Of a DNA stretch of 64,000 nucleotides, positions 2,137 to 63,551 are shown piece after piece (position 1 is the first letter of the stretch; every line of letters starts with the position of its first letter). This DNA comes from Dictyostelium discoideum (taxonomy: Eukaryota), in assembly GCA_000004695.1 (NCBI GenBank), contig CM000154.2, positions 1,152,001 to 1,216,000 on the forward strand, given 5' to 3'. A program made the position numbers and the translations under genes. Under the pieces are notes generated by a model. It was given only the letters and a program-made list of their open reading frames with translations, searched no databases and was not told where the DNA came from.

Positions 2137-4802
<2,666 letters not shown>

Positions 4803-4914
4803 TAATTAAAAAAAAAATTTAAAAAAAAAAAAAAAAAAATTTTCCAAGATATAATATATATATCTCTATCTATTTATGTACAACTTTTTTTTTTTTTTTT
4901 TTTTTTTATTTATT

Positions 4915-5472
4915 TTAAATTATTAATTCTAATAATGGATTTTCATTATAATGTTTAATTACAATATTATCAAAAGTATTATTTGAAAGTGTTAAAGTTT
5001 TTAAAGAATTTAATTTTATAAATTGTTTAATGGTTTCTTCATTTAGAGTGATTCTATTATTTTGAATATTTAAATGAATAATATTTGTATTATATTTTAC
5101 AAGTTGATATAATGATTCAAATTGATCACTGTTGACCAATGATCCATTGGTTAGTGATAATGATCTTATTGATTTATTATTAATTAGAGAGTCAAAGAAT
5201 TTTGGTATAAATTGTAGAAAATAAAAACCTGATAATGATAAAGATGTAATGGTTTCATTGTATTTGAAAACTGATGAAAAGAATTCCACTACAAAAATTG
5301 GTAACTTGAAATTTAAAGAACCTCTTGTCAAGTGATTATTTATTAATTTATTTGTTTTATCCTTTGTAAATTTAATTAATAATGTTTTAATTGATTTATT
5401 ATTTATAATTGAATCTTTTAATTTTTCAATAATCATTGAAAATTCTTCAATTAATATATTATTTTGAATTAA

Positions 5473-5504
<32 letters not shown>

Positions 5505-5898
5505 CGTTATTATTATCGTTATTATTATCGTTTTTACTATTGTCAATGAATGAAAACAATTCAGAGAATGATTCACATTCTAAATGATTTAAATTATTTA
5601 ATTTAAACGCTTCAATTAATGCTAATAAACAACAATTACCTGGTCGTATTAATTTTTTAGTTGAATTTAATTTTAAAGGTGCAGAACATATACTATTGAA
5701 AATTAAATATTCTGGATCCAATAAATAAATTAACTCCAATAAATCATTTGATATATTAATATGATCCAGTAAAGTTGTTATTGAAAGTTTATAAACATTT
5801 AAATTTTTATAAACAATCAAATGACTATTATATTCACTATCATTAACATTATCATTACTATTAGTATTGTTGTTGTTAATACTGTTTTTATCAATATT

Positions 5899-5954
<56 letters not shown>

Positions 5955-6618
5955 GCTGTTCAGTATTAAATGAAAATGAACCACTTGCATATAAATTTAA
6001 AAGTAATTTTATATTTGTTTGTTGATTAGATATTAATTTAAATTTTGATAAAATTGAAAATAGATCAGGTTCTACTAGTACATTTATATTTTCACTAATA
6101 TATTCTAAATGTTTGAATAATTTTAATAAATAAATTGAATTATTTGGTGATGATAATAATTTCATAACATTTCTATTTATGTTACAAAAATCCAACATCG
6201 TTATATTATTGAAATCGACTAAACTATAATTTGGAGGTGACGTTGATATCATTGATTCATTTAAAATATAATTCTCATCAATTTCATCATCACTATATCC
6301 TTGGTCATTTATTCTCTTATTATTATTATTATTTGTTCTTATTATGAAATCATTAATATCAAAATAAATTTCTCTTGTGTAAATTATTGGAGTTGATGGT
6401 TGTTTGAATATGTATTTATAAATTTCTATACAATTTAACTTTGATTTACATATTGAACAATATTTAAACCATTTTTTTGATACCAATGCTAATGAAAGCA
6501 TGTGTTTTTGTCTAATGCCATTATAAAGGTCGTAGCTAAACTCTAAATCAAATTTTGGTTTTAAAAGGATTTGGCTGTGTTTAATTATTTCAAAATATAT
6601 ATAGTTTGGAAATTTCAT
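4915..6618 (-). CDS. F-box / leucine-rich-repeat protein with internal poly-Q, single exon
   Basis: True ATG at 6618. N-terminal 'MLSLALVSKKWFKYC' is F-box-like. C-terminal LRRs 'LSLSGFYFLQFIPKFFDSLINNKSIRSLSLTNGSL...LKTLTLSNNTF'. (TTG)19 at 5901..5957 encodes Q21. Confidence 0.55.
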
Positions 6619-6955
6619 CTTTTTTTTTTTGAAAAAAAAAAAATAAAGAAAAATAAAAAAATAAATTGAAATAAAAAAAAATAAAAAAAAAAAATTATTA
6701 TTTATTTGTTTTGTTTGTCTATTAAATTATTGAATACAATTTTTTTTTTTTTATGAAAATGAAATAAAAAAAAAAAAAAAAAAAATTATATGGAAAAACC
6801 CTGTTATTTGAAAAATTATTTTCACATTTTATTTTTTTTTTTTTATTTTTTTATTTTTTTAAATTTCCTAAAAAAAAATAATAAAATTTGGATAATATTT
6901 TTATTACTTTTTTTGGTATTTCCTAATGAAAAAAAAAAAAAAGATATTTTCAAAA

Positions 6956-7536
6956 TTATCTTATAACTTTGTAATCACTAATTTTCTTTACCAATGACAA
7001 TATGCTATCAATATTAACTCCTGAGTACCTTTCCAACTCATTACCATTTGAAGAAATAATAAAAGTGGGTGTTGAAGATACTGTTTGACATATTTGAATA
7101 TCCTTTTAAAAATAATGTCCATTAGTATTTATTTTTTTTTACTTAACTTTTTTTTTAAGGAAATTATTATTATTTATTTTTTTTTTTTTTCTTTAAACAT
7201 ATTTACTTTGCACTTTTTAACATCAAAAATTAAAAATAAAACATTTTCATATTCTTTCTCTGATGCTAAAATATCTTTGGTAATAGATCTCACTTAAAAT
7301 AAAAATAAAATTTTTAATATATTTAATAAAATAAAATGAAATAAAATAAAATGAAATAAAATAAAACGAAATAAAATAAAATGTAACAAAATAAAAATGA
7401 AAAAAATAAAAAAAAAACAATAAATAAAAAATAAATACTTACTGTCATCTTTTTCTCCTGTGATAATTAAAAATAAGTTTAAATTATTTTTATATTTTTC
7501 AAATTCTTGGATATTTTTAATTTCTATAATTGCCAT
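6956..7536 (-). CDS. Thioredoxin-fold protein resembling TXNDC17/TRP14 (DUF953) but lacking the CxxC active site; 3 exons join(7443..7536,7207..7292,6956..7102)
   Basis: Spliced product MAIIEIKNIQEFEKYKNNLNLFLIITGEKDD-MRSITKDILASEKEYENVLFLIFDVKKCK-DIQICQTVSSTPTFIISSNGNELERYSGVNIDSILSLVKKISDYKVIR. Compare TRP14 '[51 protein letters not shown]'. Donors GTAAGT and GTAAAT; exon lengths keep frame. Intron 1 carries a ~15-mer AT repeat. Confidence 0.4.
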
Positions 7537-7885
7537 TTTTTTTTTTTTTTCTTTATTAATTTTGAACAGCTGATATTATAATGTATAAAAAAAAAAAAAA
7601 AATAAAATAAAATAAAAATAATGAAATTCACCACAACAATTAAAAAAAAAAAAAAAATAAAAAAAAAATAAAAATAAAATTTAATTAAAATTTAATTTTC
7701 AACTAAAAAGGGAATTTTCCTTTACCCACAGATATATATAAATATCCAAACCATTGTTCAATTTTTTTTTTATATATCTTTTTTATTTTTTTTTTTACTT
7801 TTATTTTTTATTTTTTTTTTTTAAAATTATCATATTATTACTTATTTAACTAATGTGATTTACACAAAAATTGAAAAGGGGTATT

Positions 7886-7898
7886 TATTATTATTTAC

Positions 7899-7962
<64 letters not shown>

Positions 7963-7966
7963 GTTA
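7886..7966. repeat. (ATT)27 intergenic microsatellite
   Basis: Uninterrupted attattatt... run immediately 3' of the gamma-CA gene stop. Confidence 0.9.
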
Positions 7967-7974
7967 TTTATTAT

Positions 7975-8987
7975 TTATAATGGATTATTTAAGATGTGAT
8001 CGCTTCTAGTTCTATTTTTAACGTATTTTTGTAATAAATCGTTATTTAATTCCTTGGCAGATTTTGAGGTTTGTTTTTCGTGTTGTTCAGAGAGGTTAAT
8101 GTTTTGTTCGATAATTTTTTCGAGTTGTGATTCGTCGTCTTTAGTGACTTGACGAATGAATTTTGCTGGAGAACCACCCCAATATTCACCAGATTTGATG
8201 GTTTTACCAGCTGTAAGTAATGAACCTGCTTCTAAAAATCCATTTTTCTCAACAACGCTACCATCACATAAAGTACTACCAGTACCAATAAAGCTTTCAC
8301 CAAGAATGGTTGCTGCGTGAACAATTGAACCTGGTCCAATATATACTTTATCACCAATTTGAGTTGGTTTTGGACCTAATGGGCCATTTGATGAACAATG
8401 AACAACTGTACGATCTGAAACAACTGTTTTATCACCAATATGAATTGAATTAACATCACCTAAATTATAAAATAAAATAAAATAAAATTATAAAAAAAAA
8501 AAAATCAATATCCTGTAATTTTTTTTTTTTTTTTTTTTTTTTATTTCTCTAAACTTTATTTTTATTTTTATTTTTTTTCAAATAATTATAATTACCTCTT
8601 AAAACTGCATTATACCAGATGCTTGATTCTTTACCAATAACAACATCACCAATAATTGATGCATTTGGTGCAATGAATGATTTTTGACCAACAATTGGAG
8701 CATTATCACCAAAAGCTGTTAATCTAGTATGTCTGTTTACTGTTTTATTATTTTTTTTTTTTGAATTAGTATTTTAAAATTAAAAATGAATGAATTAATG
8801 CAGTGATCATTAATTTTGTGATACGTAAAACTACCACACTCGCCAAAAAAAAAAAAAAGATTTAAAAAAACTTACATTTTTCAACATAGGCATAATCACC
8901 TTGCATTTTACAACCGGTTCTGTGTAAAATTAAACCAGTATTCTTTACAACTTCACCTAAAATTCCAAATAAACCTTTTTGTGACAT
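7975..8987 (-). CDS. Gamma-carbonic-anhydrase-like left-handed beta-helix (hexapeptide-repeat) protein, probably mitochondrial; 3 exons join(8876..8987,8596..8739,7975..8459)
   Basis: Spliced protein MSQKGLFGILGEVVKNTGLILHRTGCKMQGDYAYVEKC|LNRHTRLTAFGDNAPIVGQKSFIAPNASIIGDVVIGKESSIWYNAVLRG|DVNSIHIGDKTVVSDRTVVHCSS...GEYWGGSPAKFIRQVTKDDESQLEKI... Hexapeptide repeats and the gamma-CA signature 'SIWYxxVLRGD'. Splice sites GTAAGT and GTAATT with AG acceptors are frame-consistent; 246 aa. Confidence 0.7.
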
Positions 8988-42945: not shown

Positions 42946-45900
42946 TTAATCAGTAGTATCAGAGGCAGATTGGTAGAGTGGATTTTCAGCGGCAGATGCA
43001 GATTGTTCATAAAGTGGATTAGAGCTAACACCATCACCAAGGAAAGCGGCTTCACTAAAGAAAGTATCAGTTGGTGGTGCAGCTTTTCTTAATAATCTCC
43101 AAGCTGCGGCAGCAATTAAAGCAGTACCAGCGGCAGCACCAGCAATAGCACCTGTTAAAACGGTCTTATTGTCATTGGTTTGAGTGGTGGTTTCTGCTTC
43201 TTCAAATGTGACATCAACATAACCAGTTGCATTCATATGTGATTGAGCTCTAATGGCTGATGGTGCATTGTAACCTAAATCATCAACAAAGAGTTTAAGA
43301 CGATAGTTACCAGCAGTTACAGCATTGACAGTAATTGTTTGAATTGATTCATTGAGAGCAGATTTAGTATCGAGACATGAAATAGATGCAAGTGAAGTGT
43401 GGAGTTCACAATTTTGCATTCTTTTGAGTGAGATTTTAATATCTTCAAGTGATGCAACATTTTCATCATTTTCACCAACAATTGAAACTACAATTGAAAC
43501 ATTATTGCTTTTACCGGAATCTGGATCATCAAATTGAACATTTTCAACTGAAAGGGCTAACTTGGTAGTGGTGGAATAGGTTTTATTTCCGGCAAGAACA
43601 AATGGTGGAATGTTATATCTGTTAACGTTGATAACTGCTGTTAAGGTTGGTGAATCGAGACCACCATTATCTGTCATGAAAAATGGAATACGTACATAGC
43701 TATTACCAGATGAATCCGGGACAGGTGAATATACAACATAGTAATAGCCATCACTACTTTGCTCGACAGTTGTATGGTTACGATCAATAATAGAGCCTTT
43801 TAAGTCTGGTACAGTTTCATCTTTGGTATATAAAGTACCACGAAGTGCTGTGGTGACTGTTGAAAGTAATGGAGTGACTTGATCAACATCAACATCACTA
43901 CCAGTGTATTTGATTAAAACGGATGTATTGATATTCATATTGACAATATAGGTTGAGTCAAATAATACCTCACCATTATCTTTGGAAGTGTCATCTAAAA
44001 CCTTGTAACTAATTAATTGGATTGTTGGTGGTTGATTGACATGAATAACATTGACGGTGATAGTGTAAAGTTCAGAGTAAAGATCACCATCAAACAATTT
44101 GAATTCAATAAAATCGAAATCATTACCATATTCATTATGTGGTGGCATGTATGCAAAATTGTAAGAGGTTGAACCAGTTTGTGAATTTGGATAGGATGTA
44201 ATTTCTGTATCCATAGTACCTTCGCTACCCATGCTATGGGCAATTGATAAAGTACCTCTACCAGAGAATTTCAAAACTTGAATATTAACTTCAGAACCAC
44301 CATTTCCAACTTTACCTTGAACGTTTAATGGATAACGAGTGTTTTGTAAAACATCAATTACATCGGCTCCGGTGTAAACTGGTGGATTTCTTGGTCTGAC
44401 ACTAAAGGTAACTACGTCTGAATCTGATACAAGACCTTGTTGATCAACAACAGAGTATGGAATTGAATCTAATGGACCAATGTTATCAATGGTATTCCAA
44501 TTGGAAAGACCCGCATTTGGTTTGTATGAAAGAGCATCTAATTCGTAAGTTTCTTCACCAATTAATTTTGATGTAAGAACAACATTACCATTCAAAAGTT
44601 GACCATTGGCTGGGAGAGCATAAATCTTAGCTTTGAGGTCTGATGGCGATTCAATATCAGTACCATTGAATGTGAATGGTTCGGTTGTATCTTGATCGAG
44701 TTCAACTTGAATACCTTTTGTAGTTGGTGGAGTGTTAATATAGGTAAATTGGACAAAACCAGTTACATTACCAGTTGATAATACACCATATGGAGTGGTT
44801 AATTTAGAATCATCTTTACAGCTAATTATAAAGGAATCAGAGAAACTACTGAATGGAGTTGGTGAAATTTTAGATGCATCCAATAATTTGAAACTATAAC
44901 TATTGCTTGAGAGCGATTTTGGAAGGGTGGTAATTAATTCATTTTCTGAATCGTACATACTGATTTGCTTTGGAGCTGCTTGAACTGAACATAATACATT
45001 ATCACCATCAAAATCATAGGTAACCAATGTTTGAGTTTCACCAGCACCACTTTGAGATGTGAATGAGTAGGAATTGACTGTTAAAGTTGGTTTATGATTA
45101 ATTGGGTTAACAGTGACGGTTGTACTTTCAACTGATGACGTTTCTTTGAAAGTATCCATAACTTGATATGAATAACTATCAGTACCCTTGAAACCAGGAT
45201 TTGGTCTATAGTAATGAGTGAATGGTGCGTTTCCTTGAGTGGCAACGTTGTTACCATTTTGGACAGTAACTAAAATACCATTTGATGGTGGAGTGGTAAT
45301 AATAGCAATTAAATTATTAACATTTGGTGGATTGTAATCATCGATATCAGCATCGGTACCAGTTACAACATGTGCATCAGAATCTAAATAATCTTGATAA
45401 ACACTGTAATCTTGAATTTTAGTTACAACTGGTGCAACATTGGCACGATCTCCAACAATATTTACAACAACAGAGACAGTGTTTGATTCTAAACCTTCAT
45501 CATCAGTTGATGTGAATGAAATGGATGCATAATTTGAAATTGCGGAAGGTTCTCCATTGGTGAAACAAATAAGTTTATTGGCTTTTGTTGAAGAGTATGA
45601 GATACCAGAGAATTGATCTTTAAGAGAAATAATGGTGCTATCAGATGAACCAGAAGTACATGAACAATCATTAGTTGAACAGGTGTAGAAATTACCATTA
45701 TTACCATTTTTAATTGCAGTAATGGTGAATAATGCTTTTGTGGAATCTGAATCAGTTGATACCAAAGTTAATGAAACAGAACCTCTTGGAATTACTGAAA
45801 TTGGTGATGTTGATGATGAAACTGGTGCTACATTTGCATGTTGAATCTTGAAAGAAACTGAACAAGAAGCTTGTGAGAATGCATTTGATGTATCAATAGC

Positions 45901-48821
45901 TCTAAATTCTAATGTAACAGTGGCATCATTTTTTGGATTAACAGTTTGAGTGAAAATAACACTATCTCCAGTTGTAATTTTAGTTGATGAAGTAATAGAA
46001 GCACCTTTGTAAGTGAATGTACCGTAGGCAGTTAAATCAGTTGGTTTAGTAAATTGGAGGAATGGTGAGGCGTCTTCAAAATCAGTTGCAGTCATACTGA
46101 ATGTTGATTGGGTATTTAAGGTTGTTGTGATTGTTGATGAAATTGATGAACATTCTGGTAATTGATTTACTTTGTTGATGGTGATTGAAATTGTTGCATA
46201 GGTATTACTTTCGACACAACCATCAAAAGCAACAAATCTAATAGTATTTGAGGCTAAATAATTTTCGAACGGTGTATAGGTGAAAATTTCAGAGGCTGCA
46301 TAATAATTTGATTGTTGTTTTGAAACATCTTTACCATTGCTATCGGTAATAACACCAGCATTAGCTGTTAAGAATGTAGTGAATTTGAATTGTAAAATAT
46401 TTGCATCTGGATCAGTACCTGTTAATTTGAAAGTGGCTAATGAATTTTGATTGACAGAGAATGAACCTGAAGTTGCAACTGGTGGACGATTGTAATTGAT
46501 TGAAATATCAGTTTGACCATAACCCATTGCAGAAATTGTAGCAACTGGTGAAACAATTGTTGTACCTGATGGAAGTGATAATTTAAGACCATTGACAGTT
46601 TGTTGAGTTGATGAAGATGATGAAACTGTAACAGTTGATGGGACACTTGAAACAAATGAAGAACCAGTTGCAGTTGGATCAGATTTATAAACGATTTTGG
46701 ATAAAACATTCTTTACACCAGTATTAGCTTTAGCAGACCAATCACTAGCTGATGTTCCTGAAGCGGTAACAACACTACCAAAACCAGCTGAAGTGAGAGC
46801 TGAATTCCAATTAGTCATAGATGAGGCACCAAAACTAACGACCACTGGTACAATTGATTTTCCAATGAATTTATTTGTGAATGCAGTGATTTGTGCTGAA
46901 CTAGATGAATGATCACTATCGGTAATGATAACAATAACTTTGAATGAACCAGAATTCCAACCAACTGAAGCACTTGCAGCATCAGTAGCAGCCAAGAGTG
47001 AATTTCCATTAGAAGTGGTTGAATAAGTTGCTGGTTTATAAAGTCCAATGGCTGCAGCAATTGGACTACCCATAACTTGTGATGGACTAAATGAAATTGG
47101 TGATGGGGTGTAATCAGAGAAATAACCAATACCAAATTGAGCGGTTTCACAAATATTTTCAATGTTTGAAACAAATGTTGACATACCAGATTTAATATAA
47201 CCAAAGGCAGTAGTTGAAGCAAGATTGGCATCAACTAAAACGTAAACATCGAGATTATTAATTGGGTTTGGAATACTAACAATAGTTGGTACTTCATAGT
47301 TTGGTGTACTTGTGAGATAAACTTGAACTTTGGTTGGATTAACAAATGATGGATTACTGTATGAGATTGAGGTGTTGCTATTTGATAAATCTTTACAACT
47401 TTGAGATGATGAAATACTGCAATCGGCACCAGTCCAACCATTAGAACATAAACATTTACCATCACCATTAATACCACTATTTGGAACACCATTTACACAA
47501 GGTGGAACGGCAACACAATTTTCACCATAATAACCATCTTTACATTCAAAACATTTAGATGCTGGATCCCAATTATCAACACATTTACAAACACCACTCT
47601 CTGTATAACCACCATTACCACAATCTGGTTTAGCCACTAAAATTGTAAAAGAACGAACCGATGATGTTAAACCAGTTGAATCCGAGCAAACAAGAGAAAC
47701 AACATATGAACCGGTATTTGCAGTTGTTGGTGTCCATGTAATGGTTGTATTGGAGGTGGCACCTGTAACAGGAGTTTTGGTAGTGACACCAACTGGAAGA
47801 TTTGCAGTTTGAATGGTTGTTGATCTTCCAGACATAATAGTTTTACAAGAGAAAGTTAAACTTGTAGAGGCACCAATTGGGAATAATTTTGTATCACCAT
47901 CATCTGGAGTTGGTGGAGAGACAAAATCTGGTGGGTAATTACTAGTAGTACAAGTATCGATTGTGGTTGAACCACTGTTTGTGCAACCTTTACATTGAGA
48001 GTTTTGATTACATGCTGTACCAGCGTTTGAACATGTTGGATCACAAGTACCAGGTTCAGCAACTGATTGAAGAATGAAATCCACAACAATGTAGGCACCT
48101 CTTGAATCTAAAATATAAATTTGAGTTGAATAAAGACCAATTTGAGTTGGAAGGAAATAACAGTTACCTTTGGAATCAATTGTCATACCACTTGGTTGAG
48201 TCATTGTATAAACTTTTGAAAAGGAGAAAGTGAGTGCTGATGAGTCTGCATTTTGAACATTTTGATCGGATGCAATAACACGGAAGTTATTGTTTTTATT
48301 TGCAACTACTTGAACGATTGGAATCATACCAGATACTGGTGACCAATTTACCATTGACAATTCATTTTTATTATCGATTTGTACACTTGTTGTAATATTC
48401 CATGATGCATCTTTATTATTTAAAAGAGAACTAATTCTACAACAACTTGTGAAAATGGCGGTATATTCTCTAATTGTTCCAGAGTTTTGAGCTGGATAAG
48501 CTTTGGTTGTCGTGAAAGTACCTGTGAACCAATTATTTTTAACATCAAAATCTGTAACTGTAACAGAGACTGTTACTGATCCAACACCACTTCCAAAATT
48601 TAATGTACCAACATTAACTAAATTTCCAACCTTAATACTTGATGTTGATGAATAGAAAAAGGTTGTTCTATATGCAAAGTTTGATGTGAATTTGATGGTT
48701 CTATAATCTGTTGTTGGTTGCCAACTAATTGTACCAAAACGGAAATGTGATGCTTTGGAAAAAAAAAAATAATAAAAAAAAAATTTAAAATTAATATTTT
48801 TTTTTCACCTTTTCTGTTTAA

Positions 48822-49886: not shown

Positions 49887-49962
<76 letters not shown>

Positions 49963-50241: not shown

Positions 50242-53200
50242 TTAATCATCGGCACCTTCATAAATTCTTGATACATATGATGTTTCAGATTTTTCGTAAA
50301 TTGGACTACTTGAAACATCACCCATAAAAGCACCTTCATCAAAGAAAGTATCAGTTGGTGGGGATGATCTTTTTATCATTTTCCATAAACCAATTACAAG
50401 TAATGCTGCACCAGCAGAAGCACCAGCAATTGCGCCTGATAAAACTGTTTTATTGTCGGTATTTTGGGTGGTAGCAATTGGGTCATTAATTATAATATTC
50501 ACATATCCAGTTGCATTTAAATGTGATTCAGCTCTAACTGTTGATGGTGCACTATAGCCCAAATCATCAATGAATAATTTTAGACGATATTTTCCACTAA
50601 TTGAACCAATGACTGAGATTGTTGATATTGATGCATTAAGAGATTTCTTTGATCCAATACATGTGATAAGGGCAAGATTTAGATTTGGGTTACATTTGGG
50701 AGTGGCTTGAGTAAAGGATAATTTAATAATGGAAAGTGGTAAAACTTCATCACCATCATTATCATCAACAATTGATACAATTAATGAAATATTATTATTA
50801 ACTGAATCTGGATCATCCAATGTTATATTTGTAATTGAAATGGTTAGATTAACTTTACCTACAAAAGTGTTTGAATTTGATCCAATGTAGATTTTTGGTT
50901 GAAGGTTAACAGAGTTTACATTTATAATTACAGTGGAAGTTTGTGACACAACTCCTTTTTCATCGATAACATTAAATGGAACACGAGCATAATTATCACC
51001 AGTTGTACCTTTAGTTGGTATGAAAATTACATACCAATAGCCATCTTCATTTAGTGGAATTAATTGAGATGTATGGTTGATTTCTCTTCCTAAATAGTCT
51101 GAGGAGTTATCATCAAATGAATAAATTAAACCACGAAGTGGAAGATTTGAAACTAAAGCAACTAAAGGGACTGTTTGGTTATCTATATCACTACCATAAA
51201 TTTTAATTAGTACAGAATCATTAACATTCATATTAATTGTTGAACCATCAATTTGAATTTCTTTTTCAAATTGATTTAAAATTCTATAACTTATTAATTC
51301 AGTGGCTGGTGGTTGATTCACATGAATAACATTAACTGTAATATTATAAATTTTAGAGATAATATCATTATCAAATAAAATAAATTGAATTTGATCAAAG
51401 TTTGAACCAAATTGATTTCTTGGTGGATTATATGCAAAATTGTAGGATGTTGAACCAAGTTGTTGGCTTGGGTACTCTGTTATTAGTTTATCAAAGAAAC
51501 CTTCTTTACCCATACTATGGGAAATTGATAAATTACCTCTACCACTGAAACTTAAAACTCGTATACTAACAGATAAACCGCCTCCACCAAGTTCTCCCTC
51601 AATTGTTAATGGGAAACGAGTATTTTGTAATACACTAATATCAGAGTCACCAAGGTAAATTGGTGGGTTTCTAGATCTAACTTGGAATGATATTGTTGAA
51701 GAAGGAGATAAAAGACCTTGTGGATCGACGATTGAGTATGAAATTCTATCCAATGGACCTAAATGATCCACTGTATCCCAATTTGATTGACCTGGTAAAG
51801 GTGTATATGTTAATTCATCCAAACCAAAAGTATTGTCTCCACCAATCAATTCTTTTGTCAAAACCACATTGCTATCAATGGATTTGGAAAGTTTACCATT
51901 GATTGGTAGAGAGTACAATAAAACTTTTAATAGCTTTTCATTGGATTCAATATCAGAACCTTCAAAAGAAAATGCAATGAATGAATCTTGTGAAAGTTTA
52001 ACTGAACTAATATTAGTTTTTGGTGGAGTGTTTATGTAATAGTATTGAACATTACCTATTACATCACCTGTTGACAATACACCTTTTGGTGTTGTTTTTT
52101 CACTATCATCAACACAGTTAATGCTAAAGGTACTTAAAACATTCGAAAATGGGGTTGGTGTAATGATTGAAGGGTCCAACAATTTAAAACTATAGGCATT
52201 ATTTGGTAACACCATTGGCACTGATTTTATTTGCACACCTTTGTCATCATACATAAGGATTTGTTTTGGAAGGGATATTACTGAGCAAATTACATTATCA
52301 CCATCTTGGTCACTGGTATTTAAAGTTTCTATAACCCCATCACCACTCTCTGATGTAAATTTATAAACATCAATCAAAACATTTGGTTTATGATTAATTG
52401 GTTTGATAGTAATAGTTGTAGATTCAATTGATGATTTTGCATTAAATGTGTCAATAACTTGATATGAATAACTATCAGTACCAGCGTACCCTGGATTTGG
52501 TCTATAATAATGAGTGAAAGGTGCATTTCCTTGAATGGCTATAGAACTACCATTTTGGACAGTAACTAAAATACCATTCGATGGTGGATTTGTAATTATA
52601 GCAATTAAATTATTAGCATTTTGTGGATTGTAATCATCGATATCAGCATCGGTACCAGTTACAACATGTGCATCAGAATCTAAATAATCTTGATAAACAC
52701 TGTAATCTTGAATTTTATTTACGACTGGCGCAACATTAGTACGATAACCAACAATATTAACTATTACAGTGGCCAAATTTGATTCTAAACCTTCATCATC
52801 AGTTGATGTGAATGATATGAATGCATAGTTTGGAACTGCAGAAGGTTCTGAATTGGTGAAACAAATTGGAAGACTGGCTTGATTTTTGGCGTATTGAATC
52901 TGTGAATACTTTGTATTGTCAGTAATATCGATACGATCATTTGATCCAGCAACACAAGAACAGCTATTATCAGTGCATGAATAGAATGTACCTGTTTTAC
53001 CAGCATTAACCTTTTTTATGGTAAATATAGCAGATTTTGAATCTATATCAGTTGATAATAAAGATAGGGGATTCCCGATACTTCTTGGAATAGTAACAGA
53101 TGTTCCATCATTTGAAATTGGTGCTTCATTCGTATGTGTAATATTAATAGTTTGGGTACATAAATTTGAAAATAAACCAGATGAATCTTTTGATTTGAAA

Positions 53201-56185
53201 GTCAAAGGAACTAAAAGATTTAATGGATTCTTTGTTTGTTTGAAAAGTATTTTCACACTCTTTTTAATTATTGTATCTATAGTTACTTTAGCACCAATAT
53301 ATGTTAGTTGTCCATATTGTTCTAAGGATGCTAGCTCTGAGCTCACAATAAACTGTGCATTAAGAATTAATAGTTGATCATCATCTTCAAAATCAGTAGC
53401 AGTAAATGAAAAATCAACCGTTTTTTCAAATTCAGATATAACAATAGCTGAACTACATTCAGGTGGTTGATTCACCTTATTGATAGAGAATGAAACTTTT
53501 GCACTTGAATCACTAGTTAAACAACCATCATCAGCAATAAAACTAATATACAATGATTTCAAATAGTTTTTATAAGGTGAAAATGTAAATTTTTCACTTC
53601 CTGCGTATAATTCATCCTTTTGAGTTGAAACATCAATACCTTTACTTGTTTTAATTAAACCTTCTGTACTCGATAAAAATGATGTAAATTTAAAGGTCAA
53701 AATATTTCTATCTGGATCAGAGCCTTCCAATTGAAATATAGCATCAGAGTTTTGATTACAAGAAATTCCAAATGGATTTGGTGTTGGTGGATGATTGTAG
53801 TTTGTTTTAATATCGATACAACCATATCCTATAGTACACACTCTAAGTGATGGATTTATACTACTATTGTAATTGATTGGTAAAGATAAAGAAAGACCAG
53901 ACAAAGTTTTGACAACTTCAATATCTGCATCTATAGGTAAATTTTCTGGAATTGATTTTAAAAATGCAAGACCACCAGAGTTATCATTAACTTTAAATAT
54001 AATATTCTGTAACACTCCATTACCTAATACTGAGCTTGATGTTTCTTTGAATGCTGTCTTTACAAAATTTTTCCAACCTTGAGCATCAGATGATAATTTA
54101 TAAGCTCCAAAACCACATTGATATAATGTTGAATTCCAATTACTTAGAGAAACATTAATTCCAATAACTACAGGAGCAATTGACTTTTCAATGAATGCAT
54201 TTTTAAATTCATCTATTTCTGTTTGGATGGGACTTAAAGGAAGATCTGTTCTTGGTATAATGATCATAGACTTAAAGGCATTCGTTCTCCAACCTAGTGG
54301 AGTCTTTGCTGCTTTGGTTGCAGCCGATAAAGATTTTCCTGTAATTGTATGATTATAGCCACTCCATTTTTTATTTTCTAGTGATGTTACAATAGAGTCT
54401 GATGGAATTTTAGCTAAATCAGCGAATAAACCATTTTCATCAATAATGCCCAACCCAAATGATACACTTTCAGGAGATAGTTCCAAAATTTTCGTTTTGG
54501 CGTCATTCAATTGAGATAGAATATTGTTGAATTCATTTTGAGTGTTTTGATTAATATCAATCAAAAAGTAAACATCAATTAATTTATTTTTCTCTGGAAT
54601 TTTAATATTGACTTGTATTTGATACTTTTGATTATTTGCCAAATATACTTGAATGCCTACTGGGTTAATATATGATTGCTCCATAATTGAAGAACTAACA
54701 ACACCACTTTTTAATGACCCACATGATTGACTGTTTGAAATTGAACAATCATCGCCAATCCAACCATTGTTACAATAGCATTTACCATCACCCAAAATTC
54801 CACTATTGGAAACACCATTGACACAAAGTGGCACAGCAATACACTTTTCTCCATAATATCCTTTTGAACAATCTAAACAATCACTTTCAGAGGTAAAATT
54901 CTTTGGACAAACACAAATACCTTTATCTCTAAATCCCCCATTTGAACAATCAGGTTTTTCTTTTAGAAAAAATTTAAAAATTAATAAAATTAAATTTATA
55001 AATAAAATAATTAAAAAAAGAAAACTTACTAATAATAATTTCTATTGAAGTTGTAATTTTTATCAAAGAGTCGGTACATACTATATATTTAACATATGTT
55101 CCATAATCTTGAAAAGATGTCGGGAACCATAATAAATTTATTGTTGATTTTGGTCCAATTTCTAAAATTTTTGTTATGAAACCAATTGGAAAACCGACAG
55201 GTTGAATAGTTGTGTTTAAACCAATTGCATCTGTTGTACAAGAAACATTAAAACCTTCATTTTGCTCACCAATAACAAATGTTTGTGTTTGATTGGGCTT
55301 TGGAGTTGGTGGGTAAATAAAAATAGGCTTTGTTGATAAACAAGCGTCTTGTGTTTTATTATATACTAAATTGCCACAATTAATACAGTCACTGTTTTTT
55401 GTACAAATTTCACCACTGTTATTGCACTGATGATGACAAAACCCATTTTGTATCTCTGATTGGAGGATAAAGTCAAGAGTTATATACGCACCATTTTTAT
55501 CTGTAATTATTACCTTTGCGCAATATAAACCAACAGATGATGGCATGAAATATACCATACCAGTGTTTTTATCAAGTGTCATCCCATCAGGCTTTGCTTC
55601 GCCAAATGTAAACACAAGATTAGAATACTCTCCAGGTCTGAGATGTTGATCAGAGGCAGGGATATTGAAATTATTATTTCTACCATATGTTACTGGATAG
55701 ATAGGTACCATTCCTGATACTGGTGACCAATTAATTTTATCAAGTGAATTACTATTATCAATTTGTACCAATGATTTTATTGTAAAATCACCATCTTTTT
55801 CATTCAAAAGAGTACTGATTCTACAGCACAACGAATAGAAGGCAGTATAGTTAGCAGTTTTTCCTACTTCCAATGTTGGGTATGTGTGGGAAAATACTGA
55901 AGTGCCAGTAAACCAATCATCTTTAGAGTCAACCGTTGTTAGTATTAATTGATAAGTACTCACAACATTATCTCCAAAATTGAAAGAAATTTTTATAAAA
56001 TCATTTTTTTGGGGCAAATTGGAGAACCAGGCACTGGTTCTGAAGCCAAGGTCAAGAGTAAATTGTATTTCATTGTATTGAGTAGTTGGTTGCCATTTAA
56101 ATGTACCAAACCTAATATGAGAAGCTTTTATTATTAAAAAAATTATAATAATATAAGAATTTTTGTTTTTTTTTTTTGATTTTTA

Positions 56186-56231
<46 letters not shown>

Positions 56232-56299
56232 ATTTTACCGTTTGAGAAAGTTATCAAAAAATAAATAAAAAATAATAATTTTACAACAAAACTAAACAT
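50242..56299 (-). CDS. Divergent Sib-family paralogue (possibly sibB-like) with degenerate NPxY motifs; 3 exons join(56239..56299,55030..56112,50242..54959)
   Basis: Signal peptide [20 protein letters not shown] then donor G|GTAAAA. Exon 2 [18 protein letters not shown]... Donor A|GTAAGT at 55029; acceptor (A)AAG at 54960-61; all frame-checked. Same architecture and the conserved block '[37 protein letters not shown]'. Tail '[44 protein letters not shown]' has SPIY/SRIY where NPLY is expected. Confidence 0.75.
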
Positions 56300-57764: not shown

Positions 57765-60700
57765 TTAGTCAGTATTATCAGAGGCAGATTGATAAAGTGG
57801 ATTTTCAGCGGCAGATGCAGATTGTTCGTAAAGTGGATTGGCATTAACACCGTCACCAAGGAAAGCGGCTTCACTAAAGAAAGTATCAGTTGGTGGTGCA
57901 GCTTTTCTTAATAATTTCCAAGCAGCAGCAGCAATTAAAGCAGTACCAGCGGCAGCACCAGCAATAGCACCTGTTAAAACAGTCTTATTATTAGTGGTTT
58001 GTGTGGTAGCTTCTGGTGCATTAACTTTAACATCAACATAACCAGTTGCATTTAAATGTGATTGAGCTCTAATGGCTGATGGTGCATTGTAACCTAAATC
58101 ATCAACAAAGAGTTTAAGACGATAGTCACCAGCAGTTGATGCGATAACAGAAATTGAAACAATTGAACTGTTGAGTGGTTTCTTTGGTCCAATACATGTG
58201 ATTGAAGCTAAAGTTTGATGATATTCACACATTGGTGATTGAGTGAATGAAAGTTTAATATCTTTGAGTGATGCAACTTTGTCATCTTTTTGACCAACTA
58301 TTGAAACAACAATTGAAACATTGTTAGTTGTAGAATCTGGATCATCAAATTGTACACCCATTACAGAGGCAGTTAAATTGGTTTGAGTTGTGTAGTTTTT
58401 GTTACCAATGATTACAAATGGTGCAATATTGACAGTATTAACATTGATTAACACTCCGACGATTGGTGAATTAAGACCGCCATTGTCAGTCATAATAAAT
58501 GTAATACGTGCATAACTTTCACCAGAGGTTTTTTTTGATGGTACAAATACGACATAGTAAAAACCATCAGCATTTTGTTCAACATTTGAAGAGTTACGAG
58601 TGATTGGCGCACCTGATGAATTTGAAGCAGTTGGATTATAAGCGTAAAGCGAACCTCGAAGTGGGAAATTTGGAATCATTGAAATTAATGGAGTAACTTG
58701 ATCAACATCAATATCATTACCAGAATATTTAATTAGGACAGTGGTATTAATATTCATATTAATTAATGAAGTATTTTCAAATAAGACTTCACTTGAAACG
58801 CCATCTAAAATCTTGTAACTAACTAATTCGATTGTTGGTGGTTGGTTGACATGAATAACATTAACAGTGACTGTATAAAGTTCAGAGTAAAGATCACCAT
58901 CAAAGAGTTTGAAGTAAATGAAATCAAAATCATTACCATATTTATTACGTGGTGGCATGTATGCATAGTTGTATGAAGTTGAACCAGATTGTTGATTTGG
59001 ATATGATGTAATTTCTGAATCCATAGTACCTTCGCTACCCATATTGTGAGCGATACTTAAAGTACCATTGTTAGTGAATCCAATAACTTGGATATTAACT
59101 TCAGAACCACCACCACCAATTCTACTAGTGATAGTTAATGGATAACGAGTGTTTTGTAAAACATCAATTACTCTTGCACCAGTATAAACTGGTGGATTTC
59201 TTGGTCTAACACTAAAGTAAACGATATCAGAATCTGATGTAAGACCTTGTTGATCAATGACAGTGTATGAAATTGAATCGAGTGGACTTTGTTGATCAAT
59301 GGTATTCCAATTTGAAAGACCTGCATTTGGTTTGTATGAAAGTGCATTAAGGTTGTATGTTTCAGAAGCAATATTTGTTGTAGTAAGAGCAACACCAGTA
59401 GCGTTAATTAAAAGTTGACCATTGATTGGTAATGAAAGGATTTTAACTTTAATATCATCTTTTGGTGTTTCAATATCAGAACCATTAAAAGTGAATACTT
59501 TGACTGTATCTTGATCAAGTTGAACAGTGCCACCTTGAGTAGTTGGTGGAGTATTAATATAAGTATATTGAACATTAGCAGTTACTACACCAGTTGATAA
59601 TGTACCAAATGGAATAGTCTTTGTAGTAACATCAGTACATTTGACAGCGAATGAACTTGAAACACTTGTGAATGGAGTTGGAGTAATTTTTGATGGATCT
59701 AATAACTTGAAACTGTATGAAGTACCAGAGAGAACAGTTGGAACTGATTCAATTAAATTACCATCTGAATCATACATACCAATTTGACTTGGAATGGAAA
59801 CAACTGAACAAATAACACTATCACCATCTGGATCACTGGTGACCAAGTCTTGAGTTTCACCATCACCACTTTGAGATGTGAAAGAATATGAACTGACAAC
59901 AACACTTGGCTTGTGATTAATTGGGTTAACAGTGACGGTGGTACTTTCAATTGATGACCCAGCTTTGAAAGTGTCAACAACTTGATATGAATAACTATCA
60001 GTACCCTTGAAACCAGGATTTGGTCTATAGTAATGAGTGAATGGAGCTTTTCCTTGAGTGGCAGCAATGCTACCATTTTGAAGAGTAACTAAAATACCAT
60101 TGGATGGTGGAGTGGTAATTATAGCAATTAAATTATTAACATTTGGTGGATTGTAATCATCGATATCAGCATCGGTACCAGTTACAACATGTGCATCAGA
60201 ATCTAAATAATCTTGATAAACACTGTAACCTTGAATTTTAGTTACAACTGGTGCAACATTAGTACGATTACCAACAATATTAACGACTACATTGACAGAA
60301 TCTGATTCTAAACCTTGGTTATCAGTTGATGTGAATGAAATGGATGCATAATTTGAAATTGCGGAAGGTTCTCCATTGGTGAAACAAATAAGTTTGTTGG
60401 CTACTTTGTTGGTATAAGAAATTGATGTGTAGGTTGTAGTTGTAGAAATAGAGGTATATATGTTGGTTTGAGTAGAATTACATGTACAATCATTGGTTGA
60501 ACAAGTGTAGAAATCACCCTTTGCGCCCTTGTTAACGGATTTAATGGTGAATTTTGCAGATGTTGAATCTGAATCAGTTGATACCAAAGTTAATGAAACA
60601 GAACCTCTTGGAATTACTGAAATTGGTGATGTTGATGATGAAACTGGTTTAATATTTGTATGAACAAGTTTAACAGTTAATGTACAAGTACTTGTAGAGA

Positions 60701-63502
60701 TTGCACCAACACTATCGACAGCTTGGAATGATACTGGAACATCAATAGCATTGGTTGGATTAACGGTTTGGGTAAATGTGATTTCAGAACTAGTTGGAAT
60801 TTTAGATGTTGAAGTAACAGCAACACCACCAAAAGTTAATGTACCATATGCAGTTAAATCGGTTGGACTAGTGAATTGAATGAATGGTGTGGCATCTTCA
60901 AAATCGGAAGCACTCAATACAAATTTGTTAGCAACATTCAAAGTTGGTGAAATTGTTTTTTGTTGACAAGTTGGTAATTGATTGACTTTGTTGATGGTGA
61001 TTGAAACGGTTGCAGATGTAGTACTATTAAGACAACCATCATTGGCAACGAAACTAACACTGATTGGTAATAAATAGTTAATGGCTGGAGTGAAGGTGAA
61101 AGTCTCGGTTGAATCGTAATATTTACTTTTTTGGGTTGAAACATCTTTATTATTACTATCGGTAATAACACCAACGTCACTTGTTAAGAAGGTAGTGAAA
61201 GCAAAGGTTAAAATATTGAAATCTGGATCAGTACCTGTTAATTTAAAGGTAGCAAATGAATTTTGATTTACAGAGAATGCAGTTCCGGTTGGAGTTGGTG
61301 GACGATTGTAATTGATTGAAAAATCAGTTTGGCCAAAACCAATTGCTGAAACTGATGCAACTGGTGATACGATTGAGGTTGCTGATGGTTTGGTTAAAAC
61401 AAGACCACTAACGGTTTTAACGGTATCAGCGGTGGAAGATACAGCGACATCTGATGGTGTGGATTTAACGAATGAAGCGCCATTGGTTGTATTATCGGTT
61501 TTATAAACAACATTTGATAAAACACTCTTTAAACCAGCTACAGCTTTAGCAGAGATATCGATGGATGTAGCAGCAGAGACAGTGCTATAACCAAAATCAG
61601 CGGTTGAAATTGCTGAATTCCAATTTGGAATTGATGAGGCACCAAAACCAACAACAACTGGCGCAATTGAATTTGAAATGTAAGTATTGACGAAATTAGT
61701 TATAGCAGCAGAGTTTGAAGAATGATCTTTATCGGTAAGTACAACAATTGCTTTAAAGGAGCCAGAGTTCCAACCATTTGAGTTTGATGCAGCATTTGTT
61801 GCACCCAAAAGTGAATTACCACTTGAGGTTGAAGTATAAGATGAGACAGCATAACCATTGATAGTATTAACGATATTGCTACCAATGATTGAACCTGGAG
61901 CAAAATTGAAACCAGATGAAGAGGCATCACTGAAATAACCAATACCAAATTGAGTTGTTTCGCAAATACTCTTTGAAACCTCAGTGACAAATGTTGAAAT
62001 ACTTGATTGAACAACACCAAAGAGAGTTGATGAGGCGACATTGACATCGACTAAAACGAAAACGTCAATTTTTGTTAATTTTTGTGGAATGTTTAATGAT
62101 GTAGTTAAAGCGAAATCACTTTCGATATATAGTTGAACTTTGGTTGGATTGACAAAGAATGATGGAACAGAGGTGGAGAGGAGAATAGAATTTTTCAAAT
62201 CTTTACAACTTTGAGATAATGGAACATCACATTTATCACCACTGTAACCATTGATACACATACATTTACCATCACCTAAAATACCTTCATTTGGAATACC
62301 TTTATCGCATGGTGGGGTTGGATCACAATTTTGACCATAATAACCGGTACTACAATCGAAACAATTTGAAGTTGGATCCCATTTATCACCATCACATTTA
62401 CATTTACCAGTTGAAGGATCTTTATGACCATTACCACATTCTGGTTTAGCAATGAAAATTGTAAATGAACGAGATGATGATGTTAAACCATTTGAATCAT
62501 AACAAAAGATTGAAGTTACATAAACACCAACATTTGCAGCGACTGGAGTCCATGAAAGAATATTTTTAACTGTACCTTGACTTGAAGTTCCTTCTGCAAT
62601 GGCTGCACCAGCTGGTACATTAGCAGCTTGGATACCGACAGTTCTAGTTGTATAATCTGATTTACATGAGAGTGTGATACTATTTGGTTGACCAACAGTG
62701 AATGGAATTAATTGATTATCTTGTGGGGTTGGTGAAACAAAGTATGGTGGATAATTAGTTGTTGAACAAGTATTGCTAGTTGTTGAACCAGCGTTGGCAC
62801 AATTTTTACATTCTGAATTACCATTACATGTTGCACCACCATTGGAACAACTTGGATCACATTTACCTGGTTCAGTAATTGATTCTAAAATGAAATCGAC
62901 TACGGCATATGCTGGTGGAACGGCATCATCTGTGATATAAATTTGAGTAGAATAAAGACCAACTGAAGTTGGTAAGAAAAAAACATGACCAGTACTATTG
63001 ATTTTCATTCCAGATGGTTGGGTCATTGGATAAACGGTTGAGAAAGAGAATGAAAGTTTATCATCAACATTTGGGTCACTTGCAATAACACGGAAGTTAT
63101 TATTTTTGTTGGCAATAACTTGGACAATTGGTAACATACCTGATACTGGTGAATGATTTACTGATGGCCAATTTTTGTTATCAAGATAAACACTACTAGT
63201 AATGTTCCAATCAGCATCTTTATTATTGAGAAGTGTACTAATTCTACAACATGATGTAAACATGGCAAGATATTGTTTTGAGTTGTTTGGAGTTAAGGCA
63301 GTATAGGTTTTAGTAAAGATAAATTGACCAAAGAACCAATCATTCTTGGTATCAAAACTGGTCACAGATGCCCTAACTGATGTAGATGAACCATCACCAA
63401 AAGTTAAAGTACCAAGAGTAATTTTTTCTCCAATTACAATTGATGATGAGCTTGTTTTATAAAATGTAGTTCTAAATGCGAAATTTGTTGTAAATTTAAT
63501 AA

Positions 63503-63551
<49 letters not shown>

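Follow-up and report, generated by a model that had tools for sequence, protein, structure and literature searches.

The 64,000-nucleotide stretch of DNA analysed here, referred to throughout as the window, is AT-rich Dictyostelium sequence with three large tandem open reading frames (ORFs) on its minus strand, at 42946-48360, 50242-54834 (plus upstream exons) and 57765-63365. The middle of these three tandem genes is sibD (DDB_G0288197; SIBD_DICDI Q54JA4, P0016), the 1,957 aa of Q54JA4 being residue-for-residue equal to the spliced translation of the window. Because sibD and sibE were both matched in the databases and the splice match to Q54JA4 is exact, the window can be placed on chromosome 5 of D. 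discoideum AX4. The sibD gene is organised as follows.

50242..56299, minus strand: sibD gene; spliced translation is Q54JA4 exactly, with Pfam domains of the Sib family
56299-56239, 56124-55030 and 54959-50242, minus strand: sibD exons, whose splicing reproduces Q54JA4
56238-56125 (114 nt) and 55029-54960 (70 nt), minus strand: sibD introns, GT-AG

The copy at 57765 was identified as sibE (Q54JA3, P0021) by database search and then by exact cluster look-up. The copy at 42946-48360 is presumed by its position to be sibC, no named SibC sequence having been recovered. SibB (Q54JE1, P0011) and a SibA-like protein (P0025) are located outside this cluster. All three window ORFs have Pfam matches to vWA_SIBA-E and Ig_SibA; the second and third Ig_SIBA-E domains were matched in both flanking ORFs but not in the middle ORF, from which the upstream exons are missing. 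The large exon of sibD matches Ig_SibA (1.1e-57), vWA_SIBA-E (3.3e-41), Cadherin_4 and Big_9, and the full-length SibD orthologues carry PF24907, PF24908, PF24909, PF24910 and PF24619. SibD possesses the extracellular architecture of the Sib proteins, consisting of SIBA-E_N, second and third Ig-like domains, vWA_SIBA-E, bacterial cadherin/Ig-like repeats and Ig_SibA, and its membership in the family named Sib, for "similar to integrin beta", rests on homology and not on the presence of NPxY motifs. The sibD gene, its protein and the Sib family are already known; Sib tail sequences have been public since 2005-2006, and the tail of SibD was reportedly assayed for talin binding in 2006 by Cornillon et al.

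The arrangement of the cluster differs between assemblies. The gene order is E - D - C in the window and E - X - D - C in four other assemblies (three of D. discoideum and one of D. firmibasis), among them the ACTFIT assembly GCA_054883475.1 (locus L003), an independent de novo assembly in which four Sib genes are resolved against three in the reference. In the other assemblies an additional locus tag lies between sibD and sibE; a tRNA was sought as its explanation and none was found, the tag corresponding to a fourth Sib gene, here called X. Gene X was also considered as the SibA orthologue and rejected, as the tail of the SibA-like P0025 (NPMY...NPLY...SSDNL) differs from that of gene X, and the P0025 tag, ACTFIY_002619, lies about 370 from the cluster tags ACTFIY_002249-002251 of the same assembly. 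In its 5' half (63545 to about 60600), the window sibE shares only 57-74% identity with gene X of L003 and matches gene E of other strains (P0018 being 99% identical at the protein level), while identity to gene X rises to 98-100% in the 3' half (about 60600-57765); the sibE-sibD spacer is 99% identical to the X-D spacer of L003. Because its 5' half matches E while its 3' half and the spacer toward sibD match X, the reference "sibE" is an E/X chimera, produced either by a genuine deletion of about 7-8 kb in AX4 through unequal crossover or by collapse of the tandem array in the 2005 assembly. This chimera bears on the identity of the outer copy at 57765-63545 and is without effect on the sibD tail.

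Minus-strand positions 50242-50418 translate to 58 residues, a stretch that reaches from within the transmembrane helix through all 46 residues of the cytosolic tail to the stop codon. The features of this region, and the corresponding motifs of the two flanking genes, are listed below.

50383..50445, minus strand: sibD transmembrane helix, glycine-rich, 21 aa, by direct translation; aligned with the corresponding segments of SibB, SibC and SibE
50245..50382, minus strand: sibD cytosolic tail, 46 aa, by direct translation
50317..50361, minus strand: sibD conserved juxtamembrane block, 15 aa, from a six-sequence C-terminal alignment (A1)
50296..50307, minus strand: sibD proximal motif S1937-P-I-Y1940, at the site of the talin-binding NPxY of SibA and integrin beta tails
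50305..50307, minus strand: sibD polymorphic codon AGT (Ser1937), from codon comparison of the window with loci L001-L004
50260..50271, minus strand: sibD distal motif S1949-R-I-Y1952, in place of the second NPxY, by direct translation
50242..50244, minus strand: sibD stop codon TAA, by direct translation
43009..43020, minus strand: proximal NPLY of the downstream paralogue (presumed sibC), by translation
42973..42984, minus strand: distal NPLY of the downstream paralogue (presumed sibC), by translation
57828..57839, minus strand: proximal NPLY of sibE (Q54JA3), by translation
57792..57803, minus strand: distal NPLY of sibE, by translation

The SibD helix contains G-A-I-A-G and G-A-S-A-G, with four glycines overall, and is thus glycine-rich in the GxxxG sense. 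Below it lies the Sib-family juxtamembrane block PPTD.FF.E.AF.GD, within which P192, P193, T194, D195, F197, F198, E200, A202, F203, G205 and D206 are invariant across the six sequences of A1. The downstream flanking copy ends in ...SSNPLYEQSASAAENPLYQSASDTTD, with its stop at 42946, and the sibE copy in ...NANPLYEQSASAAENPLYQSASDNTD, with its stop at 57765; the ending common to both flanking ORFs is ...NPLYEQSASAAENPLYQSASD(T/N)TD. A first-pass annotation of this DNA had described the middle copy as lacking both canonical NPxY motifs (SPIY and SRIY in their stead) and as retaining the block PPTDTFF(S/D)E(A/G)AF(L/M)GD, and had quoted the C-termini of the outer copies; minus-strand translation bears out all of these observations, each outer copy having two NPLY motifs. 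Neither of the two motifs is canonical in AX4 SibD, compared with one of two in the SibD of other isolates and species. The positions of both tyrosines and the 12-residue spacing between them are preserved. In talin-F3 ligands an upstream aromatic residue, equivalent to W739, docks on F3; the SibD tail has F1930 at Tyr-10 and FF at 1924-1925, with no Trp at the integrin-like -8 position.

The two motif changes are of different ages. The search for SibD orthologues yielded proteins of two more D. discoideum isolates (P0001 and P0015; loci L002 and L004), of two genomes designated "D. cf. discoideum" (P0002 and P0003) and of D. firmibasis (P0004; L001); relatives were found with a 1530-aa query, the A1 alignment and the last 275 aa of SibD having given no matches as queries. 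In these five proteins the tail reads ...GDVSSNPIYE[K/Q]S[E/S]TSYVS[R/K]IYE..., so that proximal NPIY is present in P0001, P0002, P0003, P0004 and P0015 and SPIY only in P0014 and P0016, SSSPIY being limited to the AX4 reference (P0016) and the ACTFIT assembly (P0014; L003). For codon 1937, the window and L003 have AGT, L001 and L004 AAT, and L002 AAC. Since the other isolates, D. firmibasis and every other Sib paralogue carry Asn at the equivalent position, Asn is ancestral, and the AX4 state, N1937S, arose by a single A-to-G transition (AAT to AGT). Between L003 and the window there are zero differences across the last 1520 codons, in sibD and in sibC alike, and the tails are identical; the two Ser-bearing assemblies therefore stand for a single haplotype and do not count as separate isolates. 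All SibD orthologues recovered, whether from D. discoideum, D. cf. discoideum or D. firmibasis, have S-[R/K]-I-Y as their distal motif, which places the distal change, by sequence comparison, before the D. discoideum / D. firmibasis split. The codons TCC TAT GTA TCA A[G/A]A ATT TAT GAA are nearly constant between these two species, between which dS is about 0.83.

A two-step history accounts for the present tail. Distal E-N-P-L-Y was remodelled to V-S-[R/K]-I-Y at an early stage of the SibD lineage, when D. discoideum and D. firmibasis had not yet separated, a step evident from the orthologue alignments, in which the Tyr, a hydrophobic residue at -1 and the 12-residue spacing were kept and TSYVS[R/K]IYE has been conserved since. 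Recently, in the AX4 laboratory strain lineage, the A-to-G change converted the membrane-proximal, talin-binding NPIY to SPIY, a step equally evident from the codon comparison. N1937S is thus a property of the AX4 strain lineage, and only the distal loss as a property of the SibD paralogue. The earlier description of motif loss as a trait of the paralogue consequently stands for the distal motif, and must be given up for the proximal one, which is a polymorphism of the AX4 lineage at a site with Asn elsewhere.

The latitude of these positions across the wider family was surveyed in a profile search of the C-terminal 230 residues against 1.84 billion representative proteins (50%-identity cluster representatives). 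Seventy relatives were obtained, and all tallies are based on the 61 that have a recognisable two-motif tail. At the proximal -3 position, 51 tails have N and 10 have S, with no other residue represented; at the distal -3 position, the corresponding numbers are 54 and 7. The distal -2 residue is other than Pro in 14/61 tails, and the Tyr-to-Tyr spacing is 12 in 51/61. Nine of the ten proximal-Ser tails are SP[L/I]Y and come from metagenomic eukaryote or Logan contigs, and the tenth, from the amoebozoan Clastostelium, is SALY. Among these distant relatives the Asn position thus tolerates only Ser, matching metazoan talin ligands.

Several such ligands have been characterised. The talin F3 domain binds PIPKIgamma at WVYSPLHY, with a Kd of 0.27 uM, and layilin at WVENEIYY, and the F3 ligand clamp has been summarised as W-V-E/pY-S/N-P/E-L/I (PMC4003243). 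It follows from the SPLH of PIPKIgamma and the NEIY of layilin that Ser in place of Asn and a residue other than Pro in place of Pro are both compatible with F3. The S-P-I-Y of SibD matches the S/N-P/E-L/I pattern and has the form of an [N/S]-[P/E]-[L/I]-[Y/H] turn; S-R-I-Y fits at two of the three variable positions, S and I agreeing and R, at the P/E position, not. Upstream of the SibD proximal motif the sequence is F-M-G-D-V-S-S, without the W-V-x clamp to which PIPKIgamma and layilin owe their high affinity, and some loss of affinity in the AX4 allele is quite possible. Within the Sib family, all five cytosolic domains are said to bind talin in two secondary sources that cite Cornillon et al. 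2006, and the proximal NPxY of SibA is reported as essential for talin A binding. In beta3 integrin, Asn744 touches talin F3 directly and N744A abolishes beta3-mediated adhesion (PMC7768682); because of this contact and this phenotype, the N-to-S change could cost talin affinity.

SibD is proposed, with a probability of about 0.6, to be a sub-functionalised but working Sib receptor in which talin coupling is retained, possibly in weakened form. Because Ser can stand for Asn in talin-F3 ligands, SibD would still couple to talin A, via the proximal [N/S]-P-I-Y turn and the PPTDTFF...F.GD block. The AX4 allele would then probably differ from the wild allele by no more than a weakening or modulation, and would not be an uncoupled receptor. 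The specialisation of SibD more likely involves the strong divergence of its vWA ectodomain, expression outside vegetative growth and the alteration of its distal site, and the distal motif, judged from its conserved remodelling, would be the likeliest site of sub-functionalisation in the tail. The distal site in integrins serves adaptors other than talin; no kindlin for such a site is known in Dictyostelium.

The first-pass annotation had read the same tail differently, suggesting that the SibD of AX4, with no Asn in either motif, may no longer bind talin, serving as an uncoupled decoy or employing another adaptor. Both canonical motifs are indeed missing in the window, and the reported need for the proximal NPxY in SibA and the loss of adhesion in beta3 N744A (PMC7768682) speak for this reading; the distal site, long non-canonical yet conserved, also fits a different partner. 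The proximal loss, however, is strain-specific and cannot define the function of the paralogue, whose other alleles have NPIY, and genuine talin-F3 ligands include both Ser-for-Asn and non-Pro variants (PMC4003243). The recurrence of Ser at the proximal Asn site in 10/61 related tails, the talin binding attributed to all five Sib tails in the secondary literature and the normal purifying selection on sibD weigh in the same direction, and the uncoupled receptor is considered unlikely. What can be kept of the earlier proposal is the sub-functionalised paralogue, made plausible by the diverged vWA domain, the separate expression and the remodelled distal motif; the decoy component is not supported.

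S1937-P1938 also constitutes a minimal proline-directed kinase site within the talin-binding turn, and by analogy its phosphorylation would block talin, making the AX4 allele a phospho-switch and converting a constitutive link into one gated by a kinase. The precedent is S650 in the SPLH of PIPKIgamma, the phosphorylation of which blocks talin binding (PMC2171813), and the fixation of SPxY in at least nine divergent relatives suggests a stable functional state and not damage. Against this, Ser1937 is a recent allele of one laboratory-propagated lineage, which drift fits equally well, and the SibD tail is already Ser-rich and offers many other candidate sites, so that a switch of this kind is improbable. 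At similarly long odds, and likewise by analogy, SPxY might form a distinct kinase-gated class of talin turn comprising the AX4 N1937S allele and the SP[L/I]Y metagenomic clade, with S[R/K]IY recruiting a non-talin FERM/PTB adaptor. If this were true, the N/S polymorphism would provide a ready-made allelic pair for the role of the Asn in amoeba force coupling.

Three observations could instead present sibD as a decaying, dispensable duplicate, its motif losses being steps to pseudogenisation: its divergence, its expression and the changes on its AX4 branch. SibD is 45-50% identical to SibB/C/E and the most diverged of the clustered paralogues; in the vWA region (residues about 475-764) its identity is 24-38%, against 49-60% for SibE vs SibC, and the vWA_SIBA-E Pfam score is 142 bits for sibD vs 349-372 for the neighbouring genes. 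A review names SibA and SibC as the sole Sibs of high abundance in vegetative cells (PMC9197732). The changes polarised to the AX4 branch, 14 nonsynonymous and 17 synonymous in sibD compared with 5 and 23 in sibC, point the same way; these counts omit N1937S, at which the two Asn-bearing isolates differ in their Asn codon (AAC and AAT). Yet the frame of 1957 codons is intact, with canonical GT-AG introns, and intact orthologues occur in four D. discoideum assemblies, two D. cf. discoideum assemblies and D. firmibasis. By the Nei-Gojobori method over the last 1500 codons, pairwise dN/dS for sibD is 0.25 (AX4 vs isolate ACTFIR) and 0.34 (vs D. firmibasis), about the same as the 0.23 and 0.32 of sibC. 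The tail is better conserved than the rest of SibD, at about 74% identity between species vs 59% for the whole protein, and sibD transcripts are strongly induced by chronic hypoxia in a 2025 transcriptome study (PMC12750705). The gene is intact, transcribed and under purifying selection; the intact reading frame and dN/dS of 0.25-0.34 rule out a pseudogene, and incipient decay is quite improbable. The intact frame, the selection on it, the regulated transcript and the diverged vWA domain therefore identify sibD as a gene that is being maintained, with a regulation and an ectodomain of its own. Finally, a sequencing or assembly error at the Ser1937 codon, which the first-pass annotation had named as its own refutation and which the apparent mis-joining or rearrangement of the AX4 reference nearby (the sibE chimera) might invite, has a negligible probability and is ruled out by the same AGT codon in the independent assembly GCA_054883475.1, with zero differences over the last 1520 sibD codons.

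The strain polymorphism at N1937, the fixed and conserved distal S[R/K]IY and the family-wide N/S alternation were not found in the papers available, and are refinements of a known system. As the reference strain has the derived Ser, what is concluded about SibD from AX-strain sequence or constructs may not hold species-wide. The tolerance of N/S at this position also cautions against equating the absence of NPxY with uncoupling from talin.

Of the known systems, the Sib family itself is among the closest to SibD, with the same domain architecture, Gly-rich helix, PPTD.FF block and two Tyr motifs 12 apart, and with talin binding reported in common for SibD and the other Sib tails in the secondary literature. 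SibA has two canonical NPxY motifs (NPMY and NPLY in the SibA-like P0025), where SibD has [N/S]PIY and S[R/K]IY; the vWA region of SibD is also far more diverged, and the protein is not abundant in vegetative cells. The integrin beta3 tail (NPLY747 ... NITY759) shares no sequence homology with SibD outside the motifs, but its layout is similar: a proximal turn that binds talin F3, to which the SibD proximal turn would be comparable by analogy, followed after a Ser/Thr-rich spacer by a less canonical distal NxxY without Pro about 12 residues downstream. Integrin beta3 keeps Asn in both of its motifs, whereas SibD has Ser in the distal motif and, in AX4, in the proximal one too. The WVYSPLHYSA of PIPKIgamma90 resembles AX4 SibD in placing Ser-Pro, and with it a proline-directed kinase site, at the Asn-Pro position; it differs in having His for Tyr and an upstream W-V-Y clamp, and in belonging to a soluble kinase and not to a receptor tail. 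Layilin, unlike SibD, has kept its Asn and has a W-V-E clamp, but its WVENEIYY, an N-x-I-Y turn that still binds F3 without Pro, parallels the S-R-I-Y of SibD.

In place of the three tandem Sib genes of the window, four (in the order E-X-D-C) were found in three other D. discoideum assemblies and in D. firmibasis, with the additional gene, here called X, lying between sibE and sibD. The sibE gene of the AX4 reference was compared with the locus of assembly GCA_054883475.1, which is otherwise near-identical to the window:

57765-63545, minus strand: sibE, with a candidate chimera breakpoint near 60600-60900 (compared with positions 2245-8329 of the GCA_054883475.1 locus).

The 5' half of the window sibE is matched by gene E, and its 3' half, together with the downstream spacer, is 98-100% identical to gene X of GCA_054883475.1. 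On these alignments, sibE of the reference appears to be a chimera joining genes E and X. Such a structure could reflect either a real deletion of ~7-8 kb carried by AX4, produced by unequal crossover, or a collapse of the tandem Sib genes in the reference assembly.

A short tract of sibD (52383-52866) is 86.6% identical at the DNA level to positions 45087-45570 of the presumed sibC, a name assigned by position only, and SibD residues ~1146-1238 exhibit 82-83% protein identity to both SibC and SibE. Background identity for the sibD/sibC pair is about 70% for DNA and 45-50% for protein, and the excess over this background in the sibD tract points to gene conversion between members of the tandem array. 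The spacer between sibD and sibC is extremely AT-rich and contains an unbroken run of at least 60 A (49900-49960), which is probably ordinary Dictyostelium intergenic DNA.

Across the sib cluster, to which this comparison was confined, the D. discoideum isolates ACTFIR and ACTFIW are separated from AX4 by a dS of about 0.08-0.09 and an amino-acid difference of about 4-5% in sibC, sibD and sibE, with an intergenic identity of only 79-88%. This divergence seemed high for within-species variation; it may be peculiar to the sib cluster, or may stem from a deep split between the isolates.

The five glycines of the SibA transmembrane domain have been stated to be conserved in SibB-E (PMC4510845). 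Direct reading of the helices gave the following:

50383-50445, minus strand: sibD transmembrane helix, with four glycines.

The SibC and SibE helices (42946 and 57765 copies), GAIAGAAAGTALIAAAAW, contain three by the same reading. The GxxxGxxxG core of the Sib transmembrane helices is kept, but the number of glycines is not.

Sib proteins have been reported in a preprint to be absent outside the dictyostelids. In the profile search with the C-terminal region, the module of Ig_SibA domain, transmembrane helix and two-motif tail was present beyond Dictyostelia (proteins P0040-P0092, none of them in the window). Its carriers include the protosteloid amoebozoan Clastostelium recurvatum (P0051) as well as many metagenomic eukaryote contigs, where the module-bearing proteins in some cases reach 3000-4000 aa. 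In one subgroup, SP[L/I]Y is fixed at the proximal of the two tail motifs.
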